Origin: Promethearchaeota archaeon
GTDB taxonomy: Archaea; Asgardarchaeota; Thorarchaeia; Thorarchaeales; Thorarchaeaceae
Direction of reading: 5' to 3'
DNA: 64,000 bases
Assembly: GCA_048939765.1 (NCBI GenBank)
Contig: JBHLPF010000005.1
Span: 22,375 to 86,374, forward strand
Shown: piece by piece, positions 2,741 to 24,542 of the stretch
Layout of the letters: every line of letters begins with the position of its first letter
Position numbering within the stretch: position 1 is the stretch's first letter
Notes under the pieces: model-generated
Told to the model about the DNA's origin: nothing
Databases searched by the model: none
Seen by the model: only the letters and a program-made list of their open reading frames with translations
Position numbers and translations under genes: made by a program

Positions 2741-4198
2741 ATGAGCAAAGATCCTAAGGACTCCCCTGACCGAACAGGAGTGGTCGACGAATTACTTGAG
2801 GAACTTGGTGTCGATGACAGTTTGAAAAAGGAGCTCATCGATTCAGGACGACTACAGACTGATGTATTCATGGTAGAGTCTGCAGAACAAGTTCGACGGC
2901 GTTTGGAGATAGAACGAAGCGCTGAAAGGCTCAGAGATAGTCTTGTTCTCCTAGAACGCAGCATGATGAAGGTCGATGCTACAGTTGACAGAGTCGAACG
3001 TGATTTGGTACCAGTTGTCCTCTCATTCTTGGTCGGGCTAAAAGGGAACCTTGTGAATCTCAGGACGACGATTATCGGCCGGAGCAAACGTAGAGCTAAG
3101 ACGAACTTGCAGGCCTCATATGTTGAAACAGAGGTAAAGTCCATCGTAGAGGAAGAGTTTGAGAGAGTTGAGGAAACACTCACCACAGGAATGTCTGCCC
3201 CAATAATGGAGAAGGTGAAAGACATCACTGATGGCCTTAAGGGTTCCATGAAGACTACGTTTGAGGAAATGACCACTCTGAAGTCAAGTGTGGATGGTTT
3301 TACACAGCGTGCAACAACGGAGCTTGAGTTCCTCTCTAAGGAACTACTGATGAAGCCAAAGGAAATCACTTCTGCCGAACTCACTAGCAAGGTCAAGGAA
3401 CTCGAAAGACAAGTGGAGGAGCTCACACGTGATCTTGGCGTCGCTGAGGAGCGCCTGAAGAACAGAGAAGAGGAGATTGCCAGAGTTCAGAGTGATTTCA
3501 TTGAGGCCAAAGCCAAAGAGGACTTGCTTGAAGAGACCATTGCGAAGATGAGAGCTGCTCCGCAGGTTGATGCAGATGTTCTTGTTGACCTCCGACAAAA
3601 GGTGAAGTCTCTGGAAACCGAACGTGATCTCCTGACAAAGAGAGTGGGAGAGGAAGAGACTCGTGCTACCACTGCAGAGAAGGCGGCGGCTGAACACAGA
3701 TCAATCGTTTCAAAGAAGGAGATTGAGATTGGTGACTTAAAGGCTCAAGCAGCTGGACTTCAGACTCAAATCGATTCTACTAGAGAACAACTGCTTGAGG
3801 TGGATGAACTTCGAGCCCGCCTTCGTTCATATGAGTCGGGAGATAAAATGCGAGAGCTTGAACGACTACACAGTGACTACGATCGAATCAATGCCACCTT
3901 TGAACGACTGAAGAAGGACCATAACAAGACCCTTGCAAGATTGCGATATACACAGCTACGTTTGGATGGATATCTCGGGCTGATGGAATCAACTGACAAA
4001 ACAAAGGGCTTTCTAATGGTTGAAGAGAATAATGAGATGTCCGTGAAAGCGATAGCTAATTCATTAGGTGTGTCCCAACCCATAGTCAGGAAATGGGCTG
4101 AGGACTACCAGAAGCTTGGTATTGCACAAATCAAGGGTGACGGAGAAACAATAGTCCTAGACAAGATGCTAGTAGTGTTGGAAGAGGATGAAGAGTAG
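2741..4198 (+). CDS. Long coiled-coil protein with C-terminal winged HTH
   Basis: About 300 aa of E/K/R/L heptads, then MSVKAIANSLGVSQPIVRKWAEDYQKLGIAQI. Confidence 0.75.
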   Translation: MSKDPKDSPDRTGVVDELLEELGVDDSLKKELIDSGRLQTDVFMVESAEQVRRRLEIERSAERLRDSLVLLERSMMKVDATVDRVERDLVPVVLSFLVGLKGNLVNLRTTIIGRSKRRAKTNLQASYVETEVKSIVEEEFERVEETLTTGMSAPIMEKVKDITDGLKGSMKTTFEEMTTLKSSVDGFTQRATTELEFLSKELLMKPKEITSAELTSKVKELERQVEELTRDLGVAEERLKNREEEIARVQSDFIEAKAKEDLLEETIAKMRAAPQVDADVLVDLRQKVKSLETERDLLTKRVGEEETRATTAEKAAAEHRSIVSKKEIEIGDLKAQAAGLQTQIDSTREQLLEVDELRARLRSYESGDKMRELERLHSDYDRINATFERLKKDHNKTLARLRYTQLRLDGYLGLMESTDKTKGFLMVEENNEMSVKAIANSLGVSQPIVRKWAEDYQKLGIAQIKGDGETIVLDKMLVVLEEDEE

Positions 4199-4751: not shown

Positions 4752-5798
4752 ATGAAAGAAGCGGTGCTCTATTCCAGCCTTAAGGAAGGAGTCAGATGTG
4801 ATCTATGCGCCCGGAGGTGTGTCATACATGAGGGCGAGACCGGATTTTGTAGAGTAAGAAGTCTGAAGGAATCCAAGCTATACACATCCGTCTATGGGCT
4901 GATTGATGGAATGGCAGCTGATCCAATAGAGAAGAAACCGCTGTTTCACTTTGCACCTGGTTCTAGAACGTTTTCTATTAGTACCTCTTCGTGTAATTTC
5001 AGATGTCAATTCTGCTTGAACTATCATTCCTCACACCGTGAGAGTCCAGTAGGTCACCAAATGAGTCCTGAAGCAATTGTCACTCAGGCTGAACGAACAG
5101 ACTGCGCTGGAATAACGTACACATATACTGAGCCCACAATCTTCATGGAGCTTGCACATGATACTGCAAAGATAGCAAACTCGAAGGGAATGTTCAACAC
5201 ATTTGTCACAAATGGCTACATGACAGAAGAGGCGGTAGATTACATAGCACCGTATCTTGATGCAGCATCTGTGAACCTCAAGGGGAGTGCCAACAAGGAG
5301 TTCATGCAACAATACATGGAAGTTCCTAAGCCTGAACCTATCTATAATTCAATGGCCCGTATGAGAGAGAAGGGCATCTTCATAGAAATCACAAATCTGA
5401 TTATTCCCGAGATTGGCGATCATGAAGACGACACAAGAGCATTAGCAGAGTGGGTGGTGGATATTCTTGGCCCTAGAACTCCACTTCACATCATTGCATT
5501 CTCTCCCACTTTTAAGATTACGAACATTCCCCGAACTCCAGCAAGAATGTTGGAGAAACACATCAAGATAGCAAAAGAGGTAGGATTGACTTTTGTATAC
5601 TCTGGAAACATTGGTGGACATGACTATGAGAATACCTACTGTCCAGAATGCGGCTTTAGGGCTGTAGAACGCTATGGAGTCTATTTGAAAAAGAACCATC
5701 TGAATGAACAGGGTCATTGTCCGAAATGCAATGCAGACCTGAATATTCAGGGAGTGCAATGGATGGGCGAAGGTACTCCACGTTTGACATTTTTCTAG
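4752..5798 (+). CDS. amrS: AmmeMemoRadiSam system radical SAM enzyme
   Basis: N-terminal CDLCARRC..GFCRVR, DPIEKKPLFHF, CNFRCQFC, YTYTEP, C-terminal CPECG/CPKC; ATG at 4752 preferred. Confidence 0.93.
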   Translation: MKEAVLYSSLKEGVRCDLCARRCVIHEGETGFCRVRSLKESKLYTSVYGLIDGMAADPIEKKPLFHFAPGSRTFSISTSSCNFRCQFCLNYHSSHRESPVGHQMSPEAIVTQAERTDCAGITYTYTEPTIFMELAHDTAKIANSKGMFNTFVTNGYMTEEAVDYIAPYLDAASVNLKGSANKEFMQQYMEVPKPEPIYNSMARMREKGIFIEITNLIIPEIGDHEDDTRALAEWVVDILGPRTPLHIIAFSPTFKITNIPRTPARMLEKHIKIAKEVGLTFVYSGNIGGHDYENTYCPECGFRAVERYGVYLKKNHLNEQGHCPKCNADLNIQGVQWMGEGTPRLTFF

Positions 5799-5809
5799 GA
5801 GTCTTCGAA

Positions 5810-6703
5810 ATGCAGGTGATGAATGTTCTCTGGCGACCTACAGGTCAGGACACCTTCGAATCCGGCATCAGGGTTTGGCCAGATGAATCAGACACCCCAA
5901 TATTCCTGGCCCTACCCTCAGAGTACGATGTGGAGTGGACCATCCTAGGGCCCAAGCGCTGTATTGGTCATTTGGATTCACAAGGCACGCCGGTGAGATG
6001 CCCTGAGAACAGTCTAGTTCGCAGAGGTATGCGTCGATGTGGTCCGTGTTCCGCAATGGACGAAATAGACCAATGCATTCGTTGTGATGGTAGCTACTGT
6101 AATGCGAGTGAAGAGCGAAAGGAGCGGTGCTTTTCAAGCGAATATGCCGTCTATCTTGCCGTCTTCAATGATGGTACTCTAAAGATTGGTGTTTCTTCGA
6201 GGTCTAGGGTAGAGACCAGATGGGTTGAACAGGGTGCAGACTATGGTGGAGTGATTGGGATCATCGAAGGAGGTTTGAGGGCCCGTCAGATTGAGCACAA
6301 ACTGGGTGCTAGATCTGCTGTAAAGAAACAGGTCAGAGCTGAACGCAAGGCTATGCACCTCTTGAAGCCTATTGGTGGGGAAATAGCTCAAGAAATCGCT
6401 CAAGGATTTCTTGACACTGTCAAGGAGAAAGAGATTGAATCTGAAATCGCACTTCAGGACTTATCAGACCACTATCATATCGATTCATTGAACGCAGAAC
6501 CTCAGAGATGGAGGTCGGGAAGAACTCCGGTCGAGGAACTGCAGTTAGCAGGACGGGTTGTAGGCATGAAAGGGTCATTGCTTGTAACCCGAATTGGTTC
6601 AGCTTTCACAGTTGCAAATCTGTCAGAGCTAATCGGCTACTCCATAGATGATGCTTCTGAGGTGCGAATTACTTCTCAAACAGGCCTTCTTGATTTCTTA
6701 TGA
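5810..6703 (+). CDS. DUF2797-family protein
   Basis: RCIG..CP..CGPC..C..C, VYLA..LKIGVS..RWVEQGAD, GxVVGMKGSLL. Confidence 0.8.
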   Translation: MQVMNVLWRPTGQDTFESGIRVWPDESDTPIFLALPSEYDVEWTILGPKRCIGHLDSQGTPVRCPENSLVRRGMRRCGPCSAMDEIDQCIRCDGSYCNASEERKERCFSSEYAVYLAVFNDGTLKIGVSSRSRVETRWVEQGADYGGVIGIIEGGLRARQIEHKLGARSAVKKQVRAERKAMHLLKPIGGEIAQEIAQGFLDTVKEKEIESEIALQDLSDHYHIDSLNAEPQRWRSGRTPVEELQLAGRVVGMKGSLLVTRIGSAFTVANLSELIGYSIDDASEVRITSQTGLLDFL

Positions 6704-6749
6704 TGTTCAGATAAGTTATATCTGGTCAATTGTCATGCCAGTAATTACG

Positions 6750-7607
6750 ATGAGTGAGTCAAAAGACCAAGGTGCAAAGGTCCGCTATCTCTCCTTAGTG
6801 AGAAGAGAGGGTGGTGAGCCAATAATAGGCATCCCCTATCGTGAGATGTCTGTGGACCCGGATTTGGTCGCGAGTTTTGTGTTAGCTATCATCATTTTTG
6901 AGAACCGGCAATTGAAAACGTTCACCAAAGAAGGCTATGTGGTTGTCATCGAAGAAGGGAAATATGTGGTCGGACTACTCATCATTGACAAAGTCGAGGA
7001 CGACACTGAATACCGACGAGCTTTGATCAGACTCATTGAGCAATTTGAATCCGAATACGAAGTGCATCTGCAGAACTGGAAGGGTGACATACGTCCTTTC
7101 AGGGAGTATGCACTTACTATTCTCGGGATTTTCCCGTACCGAAGGCTCGATTGGGACTTGGTACCTCGAATGGTCACGAAGTCCGAGGCAACTCCTGATC
7201 TTCAGGCGGCCATACCTTGGAGTGTTGGAGAAACTGATGAGAAATTGCAGCTTATTTCAGGCTACATCAATGGCAAGCGAACAATCGGTGAGATAGTTGA
7301 TCAGTCAGAAATACCTGAGGCCGAGGCATTGGCGCTTTTGTCAATGCTTGATCGGTATAAATGGATCACAATGAGTAGACGTTTGGAGGAGAAGAGTGTA
7401 CTAGTGAAGGTAATGGAGCCACCCCTTCTACTACGAGGAGTATATGGGGACCAATTAACGGCTCTTGTGGAACTTTGTGATGGTACTAGGACTCTTCTCG
7501 AAATCTGTGAGTTGCTGCCGTATAATATGGAAGCAGTCAAAACAGTAGCAAAGAACCTGATAGATGCGGGGGTGCTGGGTTACTATGATTTGGAATTGGC
7601 CAAATAG
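6750..7607 (+). CDS. Longin + tandem winged-helix protein (NPRL2/NPRL3-like architecture), paralog 1
   Basis: Longin pattern (YLSLVRREGG..DPDLVASFVLAI..IEEGKYVVGLLII..EQFESEY) followed by LVP and two wHTH (YINGKRTIGEI; LCDGTRTLLEIC); ATG 6750 follows a TATA-like TTATAT near 6716. Confidence 0.75.
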   Translation: MSESKDQGAKVRYLSLVRREGGEPIIGIPYREMSVDPDLVASFVLAIIIFENRQLKTFTKEGYVVVIEEGKYVVGLLIIDKVEDDTEYRRALIRLIEQFESEYEVHLQNWKGDIRPFREYALTILGIFPYRRLDWDLVPRMVTKSEATPDLQAAIPWSVGETDEKLQLISGYINGKRTIGEIVDQSEIPEAEALALLSMLDRYKWITMSRRLEEKSVLVKVMEPPLLLRGVYGDQLTALVELCDGTRTLLEICELLPYNMEAVKTVAKNLIDAGVLGYYDLELAK

Positions 7608-7702
7608 CAACCGTACTCACTCACCAACAATTGCCATCAATACAGCATCGCCGCTCCAAGATGACTCTACGAATGAATACTGGATAGGAGGCATGACCTG
7701 CT

Positions 7703-8533
7703 TTGTCCATTGATACAACAAAGGTCAGATACATCTCTCTTATCCGAATGGAAGGCGGAGAGTCAGTTCTCAACGTTCCCTACGCTGAGATGACCGTTGA
7801 TCCGGACCTTATTGCAGGCTTTGTGACGGCGGTGATCATCTTTGCCAAGACTCCAATTCGAACAATAAGAAAAGCTGCGTATGATATTCTAATTGAAGTT
7901 GGAGAAACTGTGTTGGTGCTTCTTGTCGTTGACCCAGTTCCGGATGAATCTCCATATCGTGAGAAGCTCAAGAAGATTCTACAGAATGTTGAATCAACGC
8001 ATGGCAGGAAACTGAGGGATTTTGAGGGCGATGTCAGAATATTCAGGGATTTTGCTCTAAACATTATCAAAGAGTTTCCATACATGGAGATCGACCTTGA
8101 TTTGGTGCCTATACGCAGGTCTGGAGGATCTCGAATAGGCTTTCGTGTTGGCGATGTTGATAAGAAGCTCGAACAGGTTGAAGCCTTCATCAATGGAAAA
8201 CGCACTGTTGCAGAGATACTTGATTTGATTGGTCTGCCAGAAGAAGAGGTTCTCGCGGCTATCTCTGCTCTTGCCAAGTATAAATGGATAGGCTTCAAAC
8301 GCAGGCTTACCGAGAATGATATTCTTGTACGCAATGACTGTCACGACGTAGATATTGACAAGCTTCGAATCCAATACGAAGCCAATGCAGTAGATGGTTT
8401 GATTGCTAGTTTTGATGGTGTGAAATCGATTACCGAAGTCTTTCAATCATTGCAAAATGATCGCTATGATCGCAATGCACTTTGGTTTTTAATTCACAAG
8501 CTTGTAGAATACGGTTGCCTCACTCCTGCCTAA
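7703..8533 (+). CDS. Longin + tandem winged-helix protein, paralog 2
   Basis: Collinear with the 6750 gene (KVRYISLIRMEGGE, VDPDLIAGFV, GDVRIFRDFAL, DLVP, FINGKRTVAEI, FDGVKSITEV). Confidence 0.75.
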   Translation: MSIDTTKVRYISLIRMEGGESVLNVPYAEMTVDPDLIAGFVTAVIIFAKTPIRTIRKAAYDILIEVGETVLVLLVVDPVPDESPYREKLKKILQNVESTHGRKLRDFEGDVRIFRDFALNIIKEFPYMEIDLDLVPIRRSGGSRIGFRVGDVDKKLEQVEAFINGKRTVAEILDLIGLPEEEVLAAISALAKYKWIGFKRRLTENDILVRNDCHDVDIDKLRIQYEANAVDGLIASFDGVKSITEVFQSLQNDRYDRNALWFLIHKLVEYGCLTPA

Positions 8534-8539
8534 TGTGAG

Positions 8540-9364
8540 TCAAAGCGGAGTATCATTTCCGGGTATTCCAACAACATCGCTTCTACATTGCTGACAATGA
8601 TGAAACTGTTCAATATAGGCGGAAGCAGTCTTTCTTGCCATTGCTATTTCATGCTCCGAAGGTGCTTGCATCTGTATCATATTGGCGTTTGGGACCAGTG
8701 GTACGATATTATGAAGAGTAGCTCCAGCTTTCGAGATGCTTCTAGCCAAGGAGCCAATGTCGCCCCCGTTTATGGATGGAATAAGAATTGAATTCACCTT
8801 TACACGAATGCCAACGCTACTTGCTCTGCAGATTCCATCCAATTGTTTCTCAATCACGCGTTCACCCATCTTCTCGCCCCGCATCAGATTCCCATCTACT
8901 ATTGCCCACTCATAGATTCTCGCCGCAGAGTGAGGATTGACTGTGCTTATTGAAACTGACACTGTTTCAACATTGAGTCGCAGAAGGTTCGGAACATGTT
9001 CAGCTAGTAAAACTCCATTTGTGCTTATGCAGAAGTGGATGGCAGGAAACGCCATTTTGACTCGCTGAAGAGTGCAGAGTGTTTCATCATTTGCCAATGG
9101 CTCTCCAGGGCCTGAGACAGCCACGATCTTAAGGTTGGGTCTTTTCTCGATTTCCTCAACAGCTCTGCCTGCAGCATCTTCAGGTGCCATTAGGATTCGA
9201 GAAGTACCAGGCATGCTAGTATGGCAGGCAGAAGCGAGCGCTCTATCACAGAAAGCACATTTCACATTGCACACTCTTGCCACCGGTAGATGAATCCGCT
9301 CCCAGATATTGTGCCTGGATTGAGACCAACACGGATGGAATTCTGAGGGATAGGCTTGCTGCAT
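8540..9364 (-). CDS. nifB: Stand-alone NifB-like radical SAM protein (divergent)
   Basis: HPC, RIHLPVA, CNVKCAFC, SGPGEPLAN, CISTNG, KVNSILIP, C-terminal CQQCRSD. Confidence 0.8.
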   Translation of the reverse strand: MQQAYPSEFHPCWSQSRHNIWERIHLPVARVCNVKCAFCDRALASACHTSMPGTSRILMAPEDAAGRAVEEIEKRPNLKIVAVSGPGEPLANDETLCTLQRVKMAFPAIHFCISTNGVLLAEHVPNLLRLNVETVSVSISTVNPHSAARIYEWAIVDGNLMRGEKMGERVIEKQLDGICRASSVGIRVKVNSILIPSINGGDIGSLARSISKAGATLHNIVPLVPNANMIQMQAPSEHEIAMARKTASAYIEQFHHCQQCRSDVVGIPGNDTPL

Positions 9365-9375
9365 TGCTTTGTCAC

Positions 9376-9768
9376 TCAGGTAAGGTCTCGAAGAATCTTG
9401 CTTGCCTCCCTCGCCGTGCGCTTCGCATCATTGAAGATTAGCCCTAAACTCGCATTTTCAGGGGCAGTTACGGCAAGGAGGTATTCTGAGGGCATTGCAA
9501 TTACGAGTGTAGAGCCTCGGCTTCCCTGGATTATTATGGATTTGAGATTCCCCTGACGTAGTTCCCGTACTGCTTGTTCTCCCGCGGAATGAATGCCTGC
9601 CACCATTGCAGCCACCGCAACCTCTTCAGTTCTTCCATGAAAATGGCTCACGAGCGGCAGTCCTTCCACAGAAAGGATGGCGGCACCCAGTATTGGCGAA
9701 TTATTTGAGAGTTTCTTCAGAACCTCTTTGAGAATGCTAGGCATATCTTCCGCGACAGGCTTTGCCAA
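9376..9768 (-). CDS. Roadblock/LC7 (MglB/LAMTOR-like) protein
   Basis: GAAILSVEGLPL..VAAMVAGI..L.QGNLKSIIIQGSRG..LAV..SLGLIF. Confidence 0.9.
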   Translation of the reverse strand: MAKPVAEDMPSILKEVLKKLSNNSPILGAAILSVEGLPLVSHFHGRTEEVAVAAMVAGIHSAGEQAVRELRQGNLKSIIIQGSRGSTLVIAMPSEYLLAVTAPENASLGLIFNDAKRTAREASKILRDLT

Positions 9769-10924: not shown

Positions 10925-11599
10925 CTACATTATTTCCTTTATCAGCTTGACCTCTTGTGTTTCCTCATCGTAGGACACTAAATCCGCGTTCCTCAGGTCA
11001 TGGATTGCCTTCATGACCGCAGTAGCCATAATTCCAGTACTGGATTCAATATTTTTCCTTGTAATAGCTGTCTTTGTGTTGTGCAATGTATATAGCACCC
11101 TGGCGTGAGGCTTGCCTCCAAATATGTTCTCAATAAGAATAATGTAGATTGCTAGCAGATCACTCACATCTACTTTCTCTTGGAGTTTCTCTTTCTCTGC
11201 TGATGTTTCGCGGTAGAGTTCAGATACTCTTTCCAGTTTCGAATTGATTTCATCCATCTCAGCTCTGAGTTCATCTCTTTCTTTTCGAAGTTCATCAATC
11301 TCAGAATCCTTCGTTGTGTCCGACCTCAGTGTCTCCAATTCTTCGGTTGAACTCTGGAGGGACTCTTTTGTTGACTCAAGTTCAGACTCCACCTTGTTTG
11401 CTCTCTCCTCTGCTGCCCACGATTTCTCCTCAGCTTCCCTCTTGGCAGCGCGGAGTTCTTCTGCCTCACTTGCATATCTATCAATGTCGCCAGACAGCCT
11501 ATCATGCTCTTCCAACAGTTTGACGACTGTGTTCCTCAACTCATCGAATTCTTCGAGAGTCTTCTCTTTATCCAAAGACATAGTATCTCCACCAATCAT
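10925..11599 (-). CDS. Coiled-coil protein with C-terminal winged HTH (start may be 11581)
   Basis: Acidic heptads, then ARVLYTLH..ITRKNIESSTGI..AVMKAIHDLRNADLVSYD. Confidence 0.75.
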   Translation of the reverse strand: MIGGDTMSLDKEKTLEEFDELRNTVVKLLEEHDRLSGDIDRYASEAEELRAAKREAEEKSWAAEERANKVESELESTKESLQSSTEELETLRSDTTKDSEIDELRKERDELRAEMDEINSKLERVSELYRETSAEKEKLQEKVDVSDLLAIYIILIENIFGGKPHARVLYTLHNTKTAITRKNIESSTGIMATAVMKAIHDLRNADLVSYDEETQEVKLIKEIM

Positions 11600-21951: not shown

Positions 21952-23157
21952 TCACATTCTTCTCTTGTCCATGAATTGTTCTAGCCTGTTCATTGCCTCC
22001 TCTATCATATCAGGTGGAGGAAGGAATACGCTCCTGAAATGTGCGGAGCCATATATCGGATCAAAGCCAGAACCGGGGACAAACACGACGCCTGTGTTTT
22101 TGAGAACATCGAGCACAAACTCCGTGTCATTTGCCCATCGGCCCATCAGCTCAATCCTCGGCATGATGTAGAATGCGGCTTGAGGCAACCGTGTTGAAAT
22201 TGAATCAATCTCATTCAGCCTTTTCCATATCAGATCTCTTCTCCCTCTCAATCTAGCTATTACGTCTTTCAGATGACTGCCATCACTTCTGAGGGCGGCT
22301 GCAGTGGCTAGTTGTGCCGGGGCATTTGAGCAGATTCTGACTCTGGCTTGCCTTACCATCGCATCGCGAAGCGGCTCGAGTTCTCCATCTTGGTCATGAT
22401 AGTACACATACCCCACTCTCCACCCGGGAGCGAGGTAGACCTTGCTGACACCATTAAAGCCCATGACTGGATTCTCTCCTGCTGCATTGGCCATTGGAGT
22501 CTGATCCTTGTCGAAGGTGAGTTGGTCGTAGATCTCGTCGGCGATAAGTGGAAGTCCGTATTCTCCTGCTATTCCCGCTATATCCTTGAGTGTCTTCTCA
22601 TCATAGACTGCTCCTGTTGGATTATTCGGATTGATGACGAGGATTCCTACGGTCCTCTCATTGATTTTCTTCCTAAGGTCATCGGTATCTGGAGCCCAGT
22701 CTTCATCCTCTATTGTACGATATGTCTTTGGAACTCCACCAAAGAAGCTGACATAACCGATATACGGCGGATATGAGGGACCCGGAACCAGAAGCTCGGA
22801 CCCATCATTCACGAGTGCTCCCGCTAGAAACTGGATTGCCTCTGAAACCCCAGTCGTGGCAATGATTCGAGCAGGATCAACATCGATTCCGTTAACTCGC
22901 TTTTCCTTCTCAGCTGCTGCTTCCTTAAGTTCATCAAGCCCTTCTGACGGAGAGTAACCATTAACGCCATCACGTGTAGCCTTACACATGGCATCAACCA
23001 TGAAATCAGGCGTCTTCCAGTCATACTTGATTGGATCGCCGATGTTGAGATAGAGTGGGGGTTCTCCACTCTCTTTCTCATACTGCCTGGCAGCCACTAC
23101 CACATCTCTAATGGCATATTTCAGGTTTGCAGCTCTGGATGTGATTCTCAATTTCAA
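21952..23157 (-). CDS. Class I/II PLP aminotransferase (alanine aminotransferase-like)
   Basis: LNIGDP, INPNNPTG, ADEIY, SKVYLAPGWRVG, VPGSGF. Confidence 0.93.
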   Translation of the reverse strand: MKLRITSRAANLKYAIRDVVVAARQYEKESGEPPLYLNIGDPIKYDWKTPDFMVDAMCKATRDGVNGYSPSEGLDELKEAAAEKEKRVNGIDVDPARIIATTGVSEAIQFLAGALVNDGSELLVPGPSYPPYIGYVSFFGGVPKTYRTIEDEDWAPDTDDLRKKINERTVGILVINPNNPTGAVYDEKTLKDIAGIAGEYGLPLIADEIYDQLTFDKDQTPMANAAGENPVMGFNGVSKVYLAPGWRVGYVYYHDQDGELEPLRDAMVRQARVRICSNAPAQLATAAALRSDGSHLKDVIARLRGRRDLIWKRLNEIDSISTRLPQAAFYIMPRIELMGRWANDTEFVLDVLKNTGVVFVPGSGFDPIYGSAHFRSVFLPPPDMIEEAMNRLEQFMDKRRM

Positions 23158-24146: not shown

Positions 24147-24542
24147 TCACGTCGAGAGCAAGTCGCCAACTTCTTTGGCATACTTCCTCATCTGAGTTGT
24201 AGCCAGACCCATGGATGTCAAGTCCTTGGCAGCACCCATGAGTAGAAACTCTCCGGCTTGCGAGAGAACTGCAAATCCCTTCGCTCCTCTGACCGTCACC
24301 TCGAAGAGGTCCCCCAAGTCCAGTTTCTCAGGGGATGCAGCCATTTCTCCTGTCATCAATAATGCGGCGCTTACAGCTGCCATGAGGTCCGGATCTGCTT
24401 CAGATTCTTCTGTGGCGAAGTACGCCAATTTGACACCTTGTTTGCTGACCACTGCAATTGCGTCAAGGTCTGCATAGTTAGTCAATCCCATCAGGAGTTC
24501 TACCAATTCTCTCTCTTTTTCTGGGTCGAGATGTTGCGACAT
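24147..24542 (-). CDS. Roadblock/LC7 protein
   Basis: AIAVVSKQG..DLMAAVSAALL..LDLGDL.EVTVRGAKG..MGLA. Confidence 0.88.
   Translation of the reverse strand: MSQHLDPEKERELVELLMGLTNYADLDAIAVVSKQGVKLAYFATEESEADPDLMAAVSAALLMTGEMAASPEKLDLGDLFEVTVRGAKGFAVLSQAGEFLLMGAAKDLTSMGLATTQMRKYAKEVGDLLST

Follow-up and report, generated by a model that had tools for sequence, protein, structure and literature searches.

Two adjacent genes of a Thorarchaeaceae archaeon, here called P1 and P2, are tandem paralogs of a minimal NPRL2/NPRL3-type family of the Thorarchaeia, and we propose that their products probably form a dimeric longin platform regulating a small GTPase. The pair lies in a window of 64,000 nucleotides (positions 22,375 to 86,374 of contig JBHLPF010000005.1, assembly GCA_048939765.1, Promethearchaeota archaeon). 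In eukaryotes, nutrient signaling at the lysosome is controlled by longin-domain complexes with GTPase-activating protein (GAP) function (GATOR1, folliculin and C9orf72-SMCR8), whose origin is now being traced to Asgard archaea. Here, the locus provides a small, expressible two-gene version of the NPRL2/NPRL3 architecture, with a GTPase-fused paralog in the same genome as a candidate client. The pair is a model by analogy and not an ancestor of the eukaryotic heterodimer. The protein family itself is already known; new are the lineage-specific tandem pair, the GTPase-fused paralog and a family member situated in a GTPase operon.

P1 and P2 share 39% identity over their full length and are collinear (BLASTP E 4e-58). 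A preliminary description, made from the DNA sequence alone, had recognized them as two adjacent, collinear paralogs by a set of motifs (DLVPRM / DLVPIR, YINGKRTIGEI...YKWI, LCDGTRTLLEIC, IEEGKY and IEVGET); both open reading frames are in place and all of these motifs are present. It had also assigned to each paralog a longin domain, an LVP motif and two winged helices, which is confirmed by the AlphaFold2 model of P1 and by the motifs in both proteins. To model P1, a profile search against 1.8 billion representative sequences yielded 340 relatives at E ≤0.001 and, from these, an alignment of 84 sequences (A4). The model based on A4 has a mean predicted local distance difference test (pLDDT) score of 92.2 and a predicted template modeling score of 0.87. 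A first model, computed from a shallow alignment of close relatives, showed a pLDDT <50 for residues 1-83 and only its C-terminal half was reused. According to the A4-based model, strands 11-18 and 24-29 are followed by helix 37-50, strands 57-60, 63-69 and 73-80, and helices 86-108 and 115-127, a predicted N-terminal topology that is the canonical one of longin domains. In the ESM Atlas, the matches were archaeal clusters without names only, and a structure of P1 is absent from it.

The kinship with NPRL2 and NPRL3 is most evident when the protein is compared as a whole. In a Foldseek search of the P1 model against the PDB, the top seven matches are Npr2 and chains of GATOR1 entries, with E 6.2e-7 to 3.5e-5 and alignments that span the full query. 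Yeast Npr2 leads (9h4q_T and 8adl_S, E 6e-7), followed by NPRL2-sized human GATOR1 chains (E 3e-6 to 3.5e-5), NPRL3-sized chains (E 1.6e-5 to 3.3e-4) and then the longins of sigma-adaptin and zeta-COP; 8adl_S, 6ces_N and 8fw5_B are Npr2/NPRL2 according to a profile-to-PDB search, the remaining GATOR1 chains being assigned by entry and size only. The best whole-length matches are thus neither unrelated winged helix-turn-helix proteins nor longins outside the NPRL group, in agreement with the NPRL2/NPRL3-like architecture that had been put forward from the sequence.

Independently of Foldseek, the C-terminal half of the first model was compared with 48,161 PDB representatives. Few chains cover both winged helices: NPRL2 (8fw5_B, Z 8.4, 149 residues aligned), Npr2 (8adl_S, Z 8.3, 143 aligned, rmsd 3.1, 16% identity) and also FAM91A1 (Z 8.9, 122 aligned, rmsd 6.0). 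In this comparison, the predicted tandem winged helices superpose on Npr2/NPRL2 as a single body. Profile comparison points in the same direction. The A4 profile matches yeast Npr2 (E 3.7e-5) and human NPRL2 (E 6.8e-5) across the LVP linker and winged helix 1, with the archaeal l-i-P-v placed on VPVF and idGkrtieeI on IDGFRHIQKI. The Pfam model HTH_NPRL3 is matched at E ≤0.01 by eight of the 32 family members, the best at E 2.4e-5 and 24.6 bits against a cut-off of 27.2. Only A4 reached NPRL2; PDB searches with single sequences or shallow profiles (P1, P2, A1, A2) gave nothing meaningful.

The proposed regulation of a GTPase is based mainly on family members that are fused to small GTPases or adjacent to them. 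On contig C73 of the same genome (L012:1495-3441, minus strand), a 648-aa paralog unites a GTPase domain with the longin-winged helix-winged helix module of the family: a ~110-aa N-terminal domain is followed by an Arf/Ras-like GTPase domain at residues 122-261 (E 1.3e-17) and by the C-terminal module (E 2.7e-32). Frames of ~610-680 aa with the same C-terminal match, two of them shorter and on fragmentary contigs, occur in most family genomes and in the sister-family genome G112 (P0255 and P0266 belong here), with the GTPase domain confirmed by Pfam only in the 648-aa protein and in P0255. In addition, the distant full-length member P0264 (25% identity) is part of a same-strand, operon-like row together with a 275-aa small GTPase that carries an N-terminal extension of ~120 aa. 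From the fused paralog and the operon-like row of the distant member we infer that the family may regulate small GTPases.

Some further details of these loci can be added. A 580-aa paralog lies 3 kb from the 648-aa protein on the same strand (L013:1495-3237). The row of the distant lineage (L022:2926-7870, plus strand) consists of a 352-aa TrmB/HTH_9 protein, the 275-aa GTPase, proteins of 164 and 217 aa, P0264, and proteins of 171 and 102 aa, both with coiled-coil-type matches. Small proteins of this row (4822-5316, 6852-7367 and 7562-7870) have coiled-coil-type Pfam matches, one of them also a TrmB-like winged helix. At a distance of 3 kb (L022:10101-11243), a 380-aa longin-GTPase is encoded, of which residues 44-118 match the longin profile of the family (E 8e-14).

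By analogy with other longin proteins (NPRL2-NPRL3, FLCN-FNIP, Mon1-Ccz1), P1 and P2 would dimerize through their longin domains and C-terminal winged helices, the likely form being a P1-P2 heterodimer wherever both genes exist. As a platform, this dimer may bind one of the ~33 small GTPases of the genome and regulate it, with the winged helices acting as putative protein-binding modules and not as DNA-binding ones. A non-catalytic platform, a guanine nucleotide exchange factor (GEF)-like or effector role, or a GAP acting via another residue would each be more likely than a GATOR1-type arginine-finger GAP, because neither paralog has an arginine in the corresponding loop. We take the arginine finger of NPRL2 to be Arg78, located in the loop of the beta4-beta5 hairpin of its longin domain, as in the GATOR1 literature. 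Arg18 of P1, at the end of strand 1, is invariant across both paralog families and is situated, judged by topology, on the same side of the sheet; an action of this residue on the nucleotide is speculation. The GP motif of longin GAPs is found just ahead of strand 2, in the catalytic subunit and not in its partner (PMC12290439). At this position P1 has GGEP (G-x-P) and P2 has GGES, the GP dipeptide itself occurring in neither. The asymmetry between both paralogs is suggestive, at the level of sequence, of that between NPRL2 and NPRL3.

Several results weigh against an NPRL2/NPRL3-type platform and are taken together here. Neither P1 nor P2 matches the Pfam models NPR2 (PF06218) or NPR3 at E ≤1, and a run of the NPR2 model against the genome was empty at the locus. 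HTH_NPRL3 (PF24064) scores a non-significant 13.7 bits on P1 itself and its run against the genome gave no significant match at the locus. Considered alone, the P1 longin domain is nearest to SNARE-type longins (Sec22b, Z 15.1), and chains of NPRL2 or NPRL3 are missing from the top 50 rigid-body matches of the full model, where only single longins are found. With E 1.7e-5, the RiPP (ribosomally synthesized and post-translationally modified peptide) recognition element (RRE) domain of MusD is the best PDB match of the A4 profile, which makes the signal of the winged helices generic in part. The sequence of the beta4-beta5 loop is IEEGK in P1 and IEVGE in P2. Arginine is absent from it in 31 of the 32 aligned members of the P1/P2 families, the one other being a P2-type protein with IEVGR, and is present in a few distant members of the wider family. 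The contig of the window (C55) is devoid of small GTPases: all 33 Arf-model matches of the genome are located elsewhere, and none of its nine Gtr1/RagA-model matches is on this contig. Both caveats, the loop without arginine and the window without a GTPase, had already been raised in the preliminary description and proved correct. A third GATOR1 subunit, DEPDC5/Iml1, was sought by its IML1 model (PF12257) and gave no match in this 88.5%-complete genome, in a search of which the control genomes contained no positive. Finally, the genomes G027 and G037 of genus g4 hold only a P2-type gene (406 bits with the P2 profile vs 215-232 with that of P1), so P1-P2 heterodimers cannot be obligatory in all lineages. 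Taken together, the NPRL2/NPRL3-like identity of P1 and P2 is supported for the architecture and the C-terminal module; it does not rest on the longin domain, which on its own is closest to SNARE-type longins.

We searched the family in 151 genomes of the phylum (E ≤1e-25). Within the window's GTDB family it is present in 25 of the 26 other genomes; outside, it occurs in the single genome of the sister family and in only two more. The tandem pair, defined as adjacent same-strand full matches, occurs in 22-23 of the 26 genomes and is confined to that GTDB family, within which the pairing is conserved to this extent. In relatives, P1 and P2 are separated by a gap of 2-3 bp or overlap by 4 bp, and sequence conservation is high in both paralog families (mean column identity 73% and 76%). 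The close relatives are all hypothetical proteins named after Thorarchaeota, Sifarchaeia or Promethearchaeota. The third g4 genome has partial matches only. In the two g4 genomes examined (L030, L031), P1 and the upstream DUF2797 gene are missing jointly, which suggests that DUF2797 and P1 behave as a unit. The sister-family genome examined (G112) carries a single copy scoring 152 vs 154 bits against the two paralog profiles. It occupies the same place, preceded by radical-SAM and DUF2797 genes and followed by a roadblock gene in convergent orientation. A maximum-likelihood tree unites P1 (support 99), P2 (support 99) and the copy of G112 in a clade (support 86) that is nested among other family members, GTPase-fused modules included.

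Since the pair is confined to one GTDB family, genus g4 keeps the P2 type alone and the sister-family genome is single-copy, the duplication is lineage-specific. It took place inside the Thorarchaeia, in parallel to that of eukaryotic NPRL2/NPRL3, and is not ancestral to it. A duplication inside the Thorarchaeia cannot be the event that yielded eukaryotic NPRL2 and NPRL3. The initial proposal of a proto-GATOR1 pair standing at the origin of the heterodimer is thus not supported, given a G112 copy that is equally close to both profiles and the P2-only genus. The same genome encodes, besides the 648-aa fusion and the 580-aa protein, a 204-aa paralog consisting of a longin domain and winged helix 1. 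P0248 was considered as a single-copy ortholog from another lineage and was rejected; it proved to be a third paralog, encoded by another genome of this family. Just upstream of it, a stand-alone longin of 134 aa is encoded (L016:5252-5656, plus strand; E 2.9e-14 to the family profile). Likewise, full-length profile matches of ~400-425 aa were rejected as eukaryotic NPRL2; they are without NPR2 matches and some have a V4R domain. In the representative library, the wider-family members P0283 and P0302 have a C-terminal V4R domain after the longin-winged helix-winged helix module.

Among the alternatives, the one that touches our proposal most closely concerns the partner. P1 and P2 could form homodimers or pair with other longin paralogs instead of with each other, in which case the tandem would reflect a recent duplication followed by functional divergence. 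The lineages with P2 only or with a single copy must indeed manage without a P1-P2 pair, the genome has three extra paralogs to offer as partners, and in the window P2 is preceded by a 95-bp gap and a Shine-Dalgarno site of its own. Yet in most genomes of the GTDB family the genes are adjacent and collinear, with near-zero gaps in relatives, and both copies have been kept under strong conservation. Moreover, eukaryotic longin pairs such as GATOR1, FLCN-FNIP and Mon1-Ccz1 are typically heterodimers of paralogs and, by this analogy, we regard a failure of P1 and P2 to pair with each other as unlikely.

A second question is whether the longin pair is joined by the nearby roadblock protein. The preliminary description had located a roadblock gene less than 1 kb from P2 and had considered a Ragulator-like module. 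The gene is real and ends 843 bp from the P2 stop, but the NifB-like gene in between had gone unmentioned. With 13 roadblock matches in the 3.37 Mb genome, the chance of finding one within ~1.5 kb of a given locus is ~1%. The adjacency is kept in the window's family and genus g4 as well as in the sister family; in the latter, the roadblock gene and the single longin gene face each other directly, with no NifB-like gene between them (L024). The orientation of the roadblock gene, however, is convergent to P1/P2, and its transcription unit is common to a 333-aa protein without an assigned function and the NifB-like gene. The NifB-like gene follows the roadblock gene on the same strand after 11 bp, and both are apparently organized in one operon. 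Because the whole ~12-kb block from a transglutaminase-like gene to topoisomerase VI, unrelated genes included, is syntenic across the family, proximity of the roadblock gene is no proof of a functional link. From the Ragulator link, the genuine roadblock domain and its kept adjacency thus stand, whereas the convergent orientation, the other operon and a proximity kept only within this block speak against it, and a coupling of the roadblock protein to the longin pair is hypothetical. It is doubtful that a P1-P2 heterodimer together with the roadblock protein switches a Rag/Arf-like GTPase without an arginine finger, with the 648-aa paralog as the single-chain version. If true, the archaeon would possess a functioning counterpart of the GATOR1/Ragulator logic. 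Elsewhere in the genome (G000:C26:27527-29316) two roadblock genes, a small GTPase gene and another roadblock gene follow each other on one strand. As a candidate GTPase-roadblock module, this cluster is more typical than the P1/P2 locus. A second roadblock/LC7 match of the window is found at ~24237-24500 on the minus strand (G000:C55:46611-46874, E 1e-7).

It is improbable that P1 and P2 are transcription regulators that contact DNA through their winged helices and use the longin domain as a sensor for a ligand or partner. Winged helix 2 does superpose on DNA-binding domains of the MarR/ArsR/Fur type with Z 6-7, and the family has weak, sub-threshold Pfam matches to HTH_47, TrmB and MarR. The proteins are nevertheless acidic, with isoelectric points of 4.5-5.9 across both families and a net charge of -2 and 0 for the putative recognition helices. 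The chains that fit both winged helices best and with the most residues, NPRL2/Npr2 (143-149 aligned), are protein-interaction modules, as is FAM91A1, which also covers both, and members of the family are fused to GTPases or share an operon with them.

Still less probable is a function of the winged helices as RRE/PqqD-like peptide binders delivering a substrate to the neighboring radical-SAM enzymes: besides the MusD match and weak PqqD matches, strand 137-141 and winged helix 1 superpose on the RREs of MccB (Z 7.9), PbtF (Z 6.6) and TigE (Z 6.2), winged helix 1 shares with them the extra N-terminal strand and an xDGxxTxxEI-type motif, and radical-SAM genes lie on either side of the pair, but P1 and P2 stay below the family thresholds (19.9 bits with PqqD against a cut-off of 46), the neighbors are an AmmeMemoRadiSam enzyme and a NifB-like core instead of SPASM proteins or RiPP maturases, the NifB-like gene does not intervene in the sister family, the third paralog and the distant members have no radical-SAM neighbor, and the longin domain to which the winged helices are fused would be left as unexplained as the GTPase fusions.

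The NPRL2/NPRL3-type platform can be placed among described systems. An Asgard protein with a longin domain and an NPRL2-specific C-terminal domain was reported in 2020-21 from most Thor metagenome-assembled genomes and a few Loki ones (Liu et al., bioRxiv 10.1101/2020.10.19.343400), as had been presumed when the family was called probably not new. "NPRL2-like longin domain" is a standard asCOG category. P1 and P2 almost certainly belong to it, since they agree with it in domain organization and in taxonomic distribution (present in 25 of 26 genomes of the window's family and rarely elsewhere in the phylum); the assignment was made by description and distribution and not by accessions. The main text of that preprint does not mention the tandem pair, the roadblock neighbor or the GTPase-fused paralog. 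With NPRL2 (Npr2) and NPRL3 (Npr3) of GATOR1/SEACIT the archaeal proteins share an N-terminal longin domain, a VP-strand linker and two C-terminal winged helices in the same order, and in both systems two paralogs stand side by side. They differ by their size (276-285 aa without inserts, against 380-615 aa and more), by the lack of both a Pfam NPR2 match and the arginine of the finger, and by a duplication specific to the Thorarchaeia. Asgard longins of the FLCN/SMCR8 type, with a GP motif and an arginine finger, have been described as well (Traffic 2025, PMC12290439). Both these and P1/P2 are Asgard longins that have been proposed as kin of eukaryotic GAP complexes with longin domains, and in P1 a proline stands at the start of strand 2, near the place of the GP motif. 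In contrast, the motif is G-x-P and not GP in P1 and has no equivalent in P2, both are without an arginine finger, and their C-terminal part is a tandem winged helix and not a DENN domain.

The coordinates of the genes and of the predicted domains of P1 are collected in Table 1.

Table 1. Genes, signals and predicted P1 domains at the P1/P2 locus (window coordinates).
Feature	Positions	Strand	Length	Description
P1 (paralog 1)	6750..7607	+	285 aa	NPRL2/NPRL3-like: longin domain, strand with LVP, pair of winged helices; strand 2 opens with GGEP
P1 longin domain	6780..7130	+	residues 11-127	Predicted beta-beta-alpha-beta-beta-beta-alpha-alpha; beta4-beta5 loop IEEGK, no Arg
P1 linker strand	7158..7172	+	residues 137-141	Invariant LVP; aligned to VPVF of human NPRL2 in the profile-to-PDB match
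P1 winged helix 1	7227..7409	+	residues 160-220	INGKRTIGEI...YKWI; sub-threshold HTH_NPRL3 in relatives; also RRE/PqqD-like
P1 winged helix 2	7425..7583	+	residues 226-278	CDGTRTLLEIC
Shine-Dalgarno-like site	7688..7692	+		GGAGG, 10 nt ahead of the P2 TTG start
P2 (paralog 2)	7703..8533	+	276 aa	Architecture of P1; GGES in place of GGEP; beta4-beta5 loop IEVGE
DUF2797 gene	5717..6703	+		Immediately upstream of P1; true start probably internal, near 5800
NifB-like radical-SAM core	8540..9364	-		Convergent on P2, ends 6 bases past the P2 stop; a neighbor, membership in the module unsupported
Roadblock/LC7 gene	9376..9768	-	130 aa	Single domain, Robl_LC7 E 3.2e-15; separate convergent unit

P1 has a second possible ATG at 6735, and the start codon of P2 is TTG. 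Upstream of P1, an AmmeMemoRadiSam radical-SAM gene precedes the DUF2797 gene; the start of the latter is probably internal because 82 bp of the listed open reading frame coincide with the end of the AmmeMemoRadiSam gene. For the NifB-like gene, the TIGR01290 score of 223 bits falls short of the NifB cut-off of 344, and no nif context was seen around it. The region is flanked by two coiled-coil proteins that carry a helix-turn-helix or winged helix at the C-terminus, encoded at 2741-4198 (plus strand) and 10925-11599 (minus strand) of the window.

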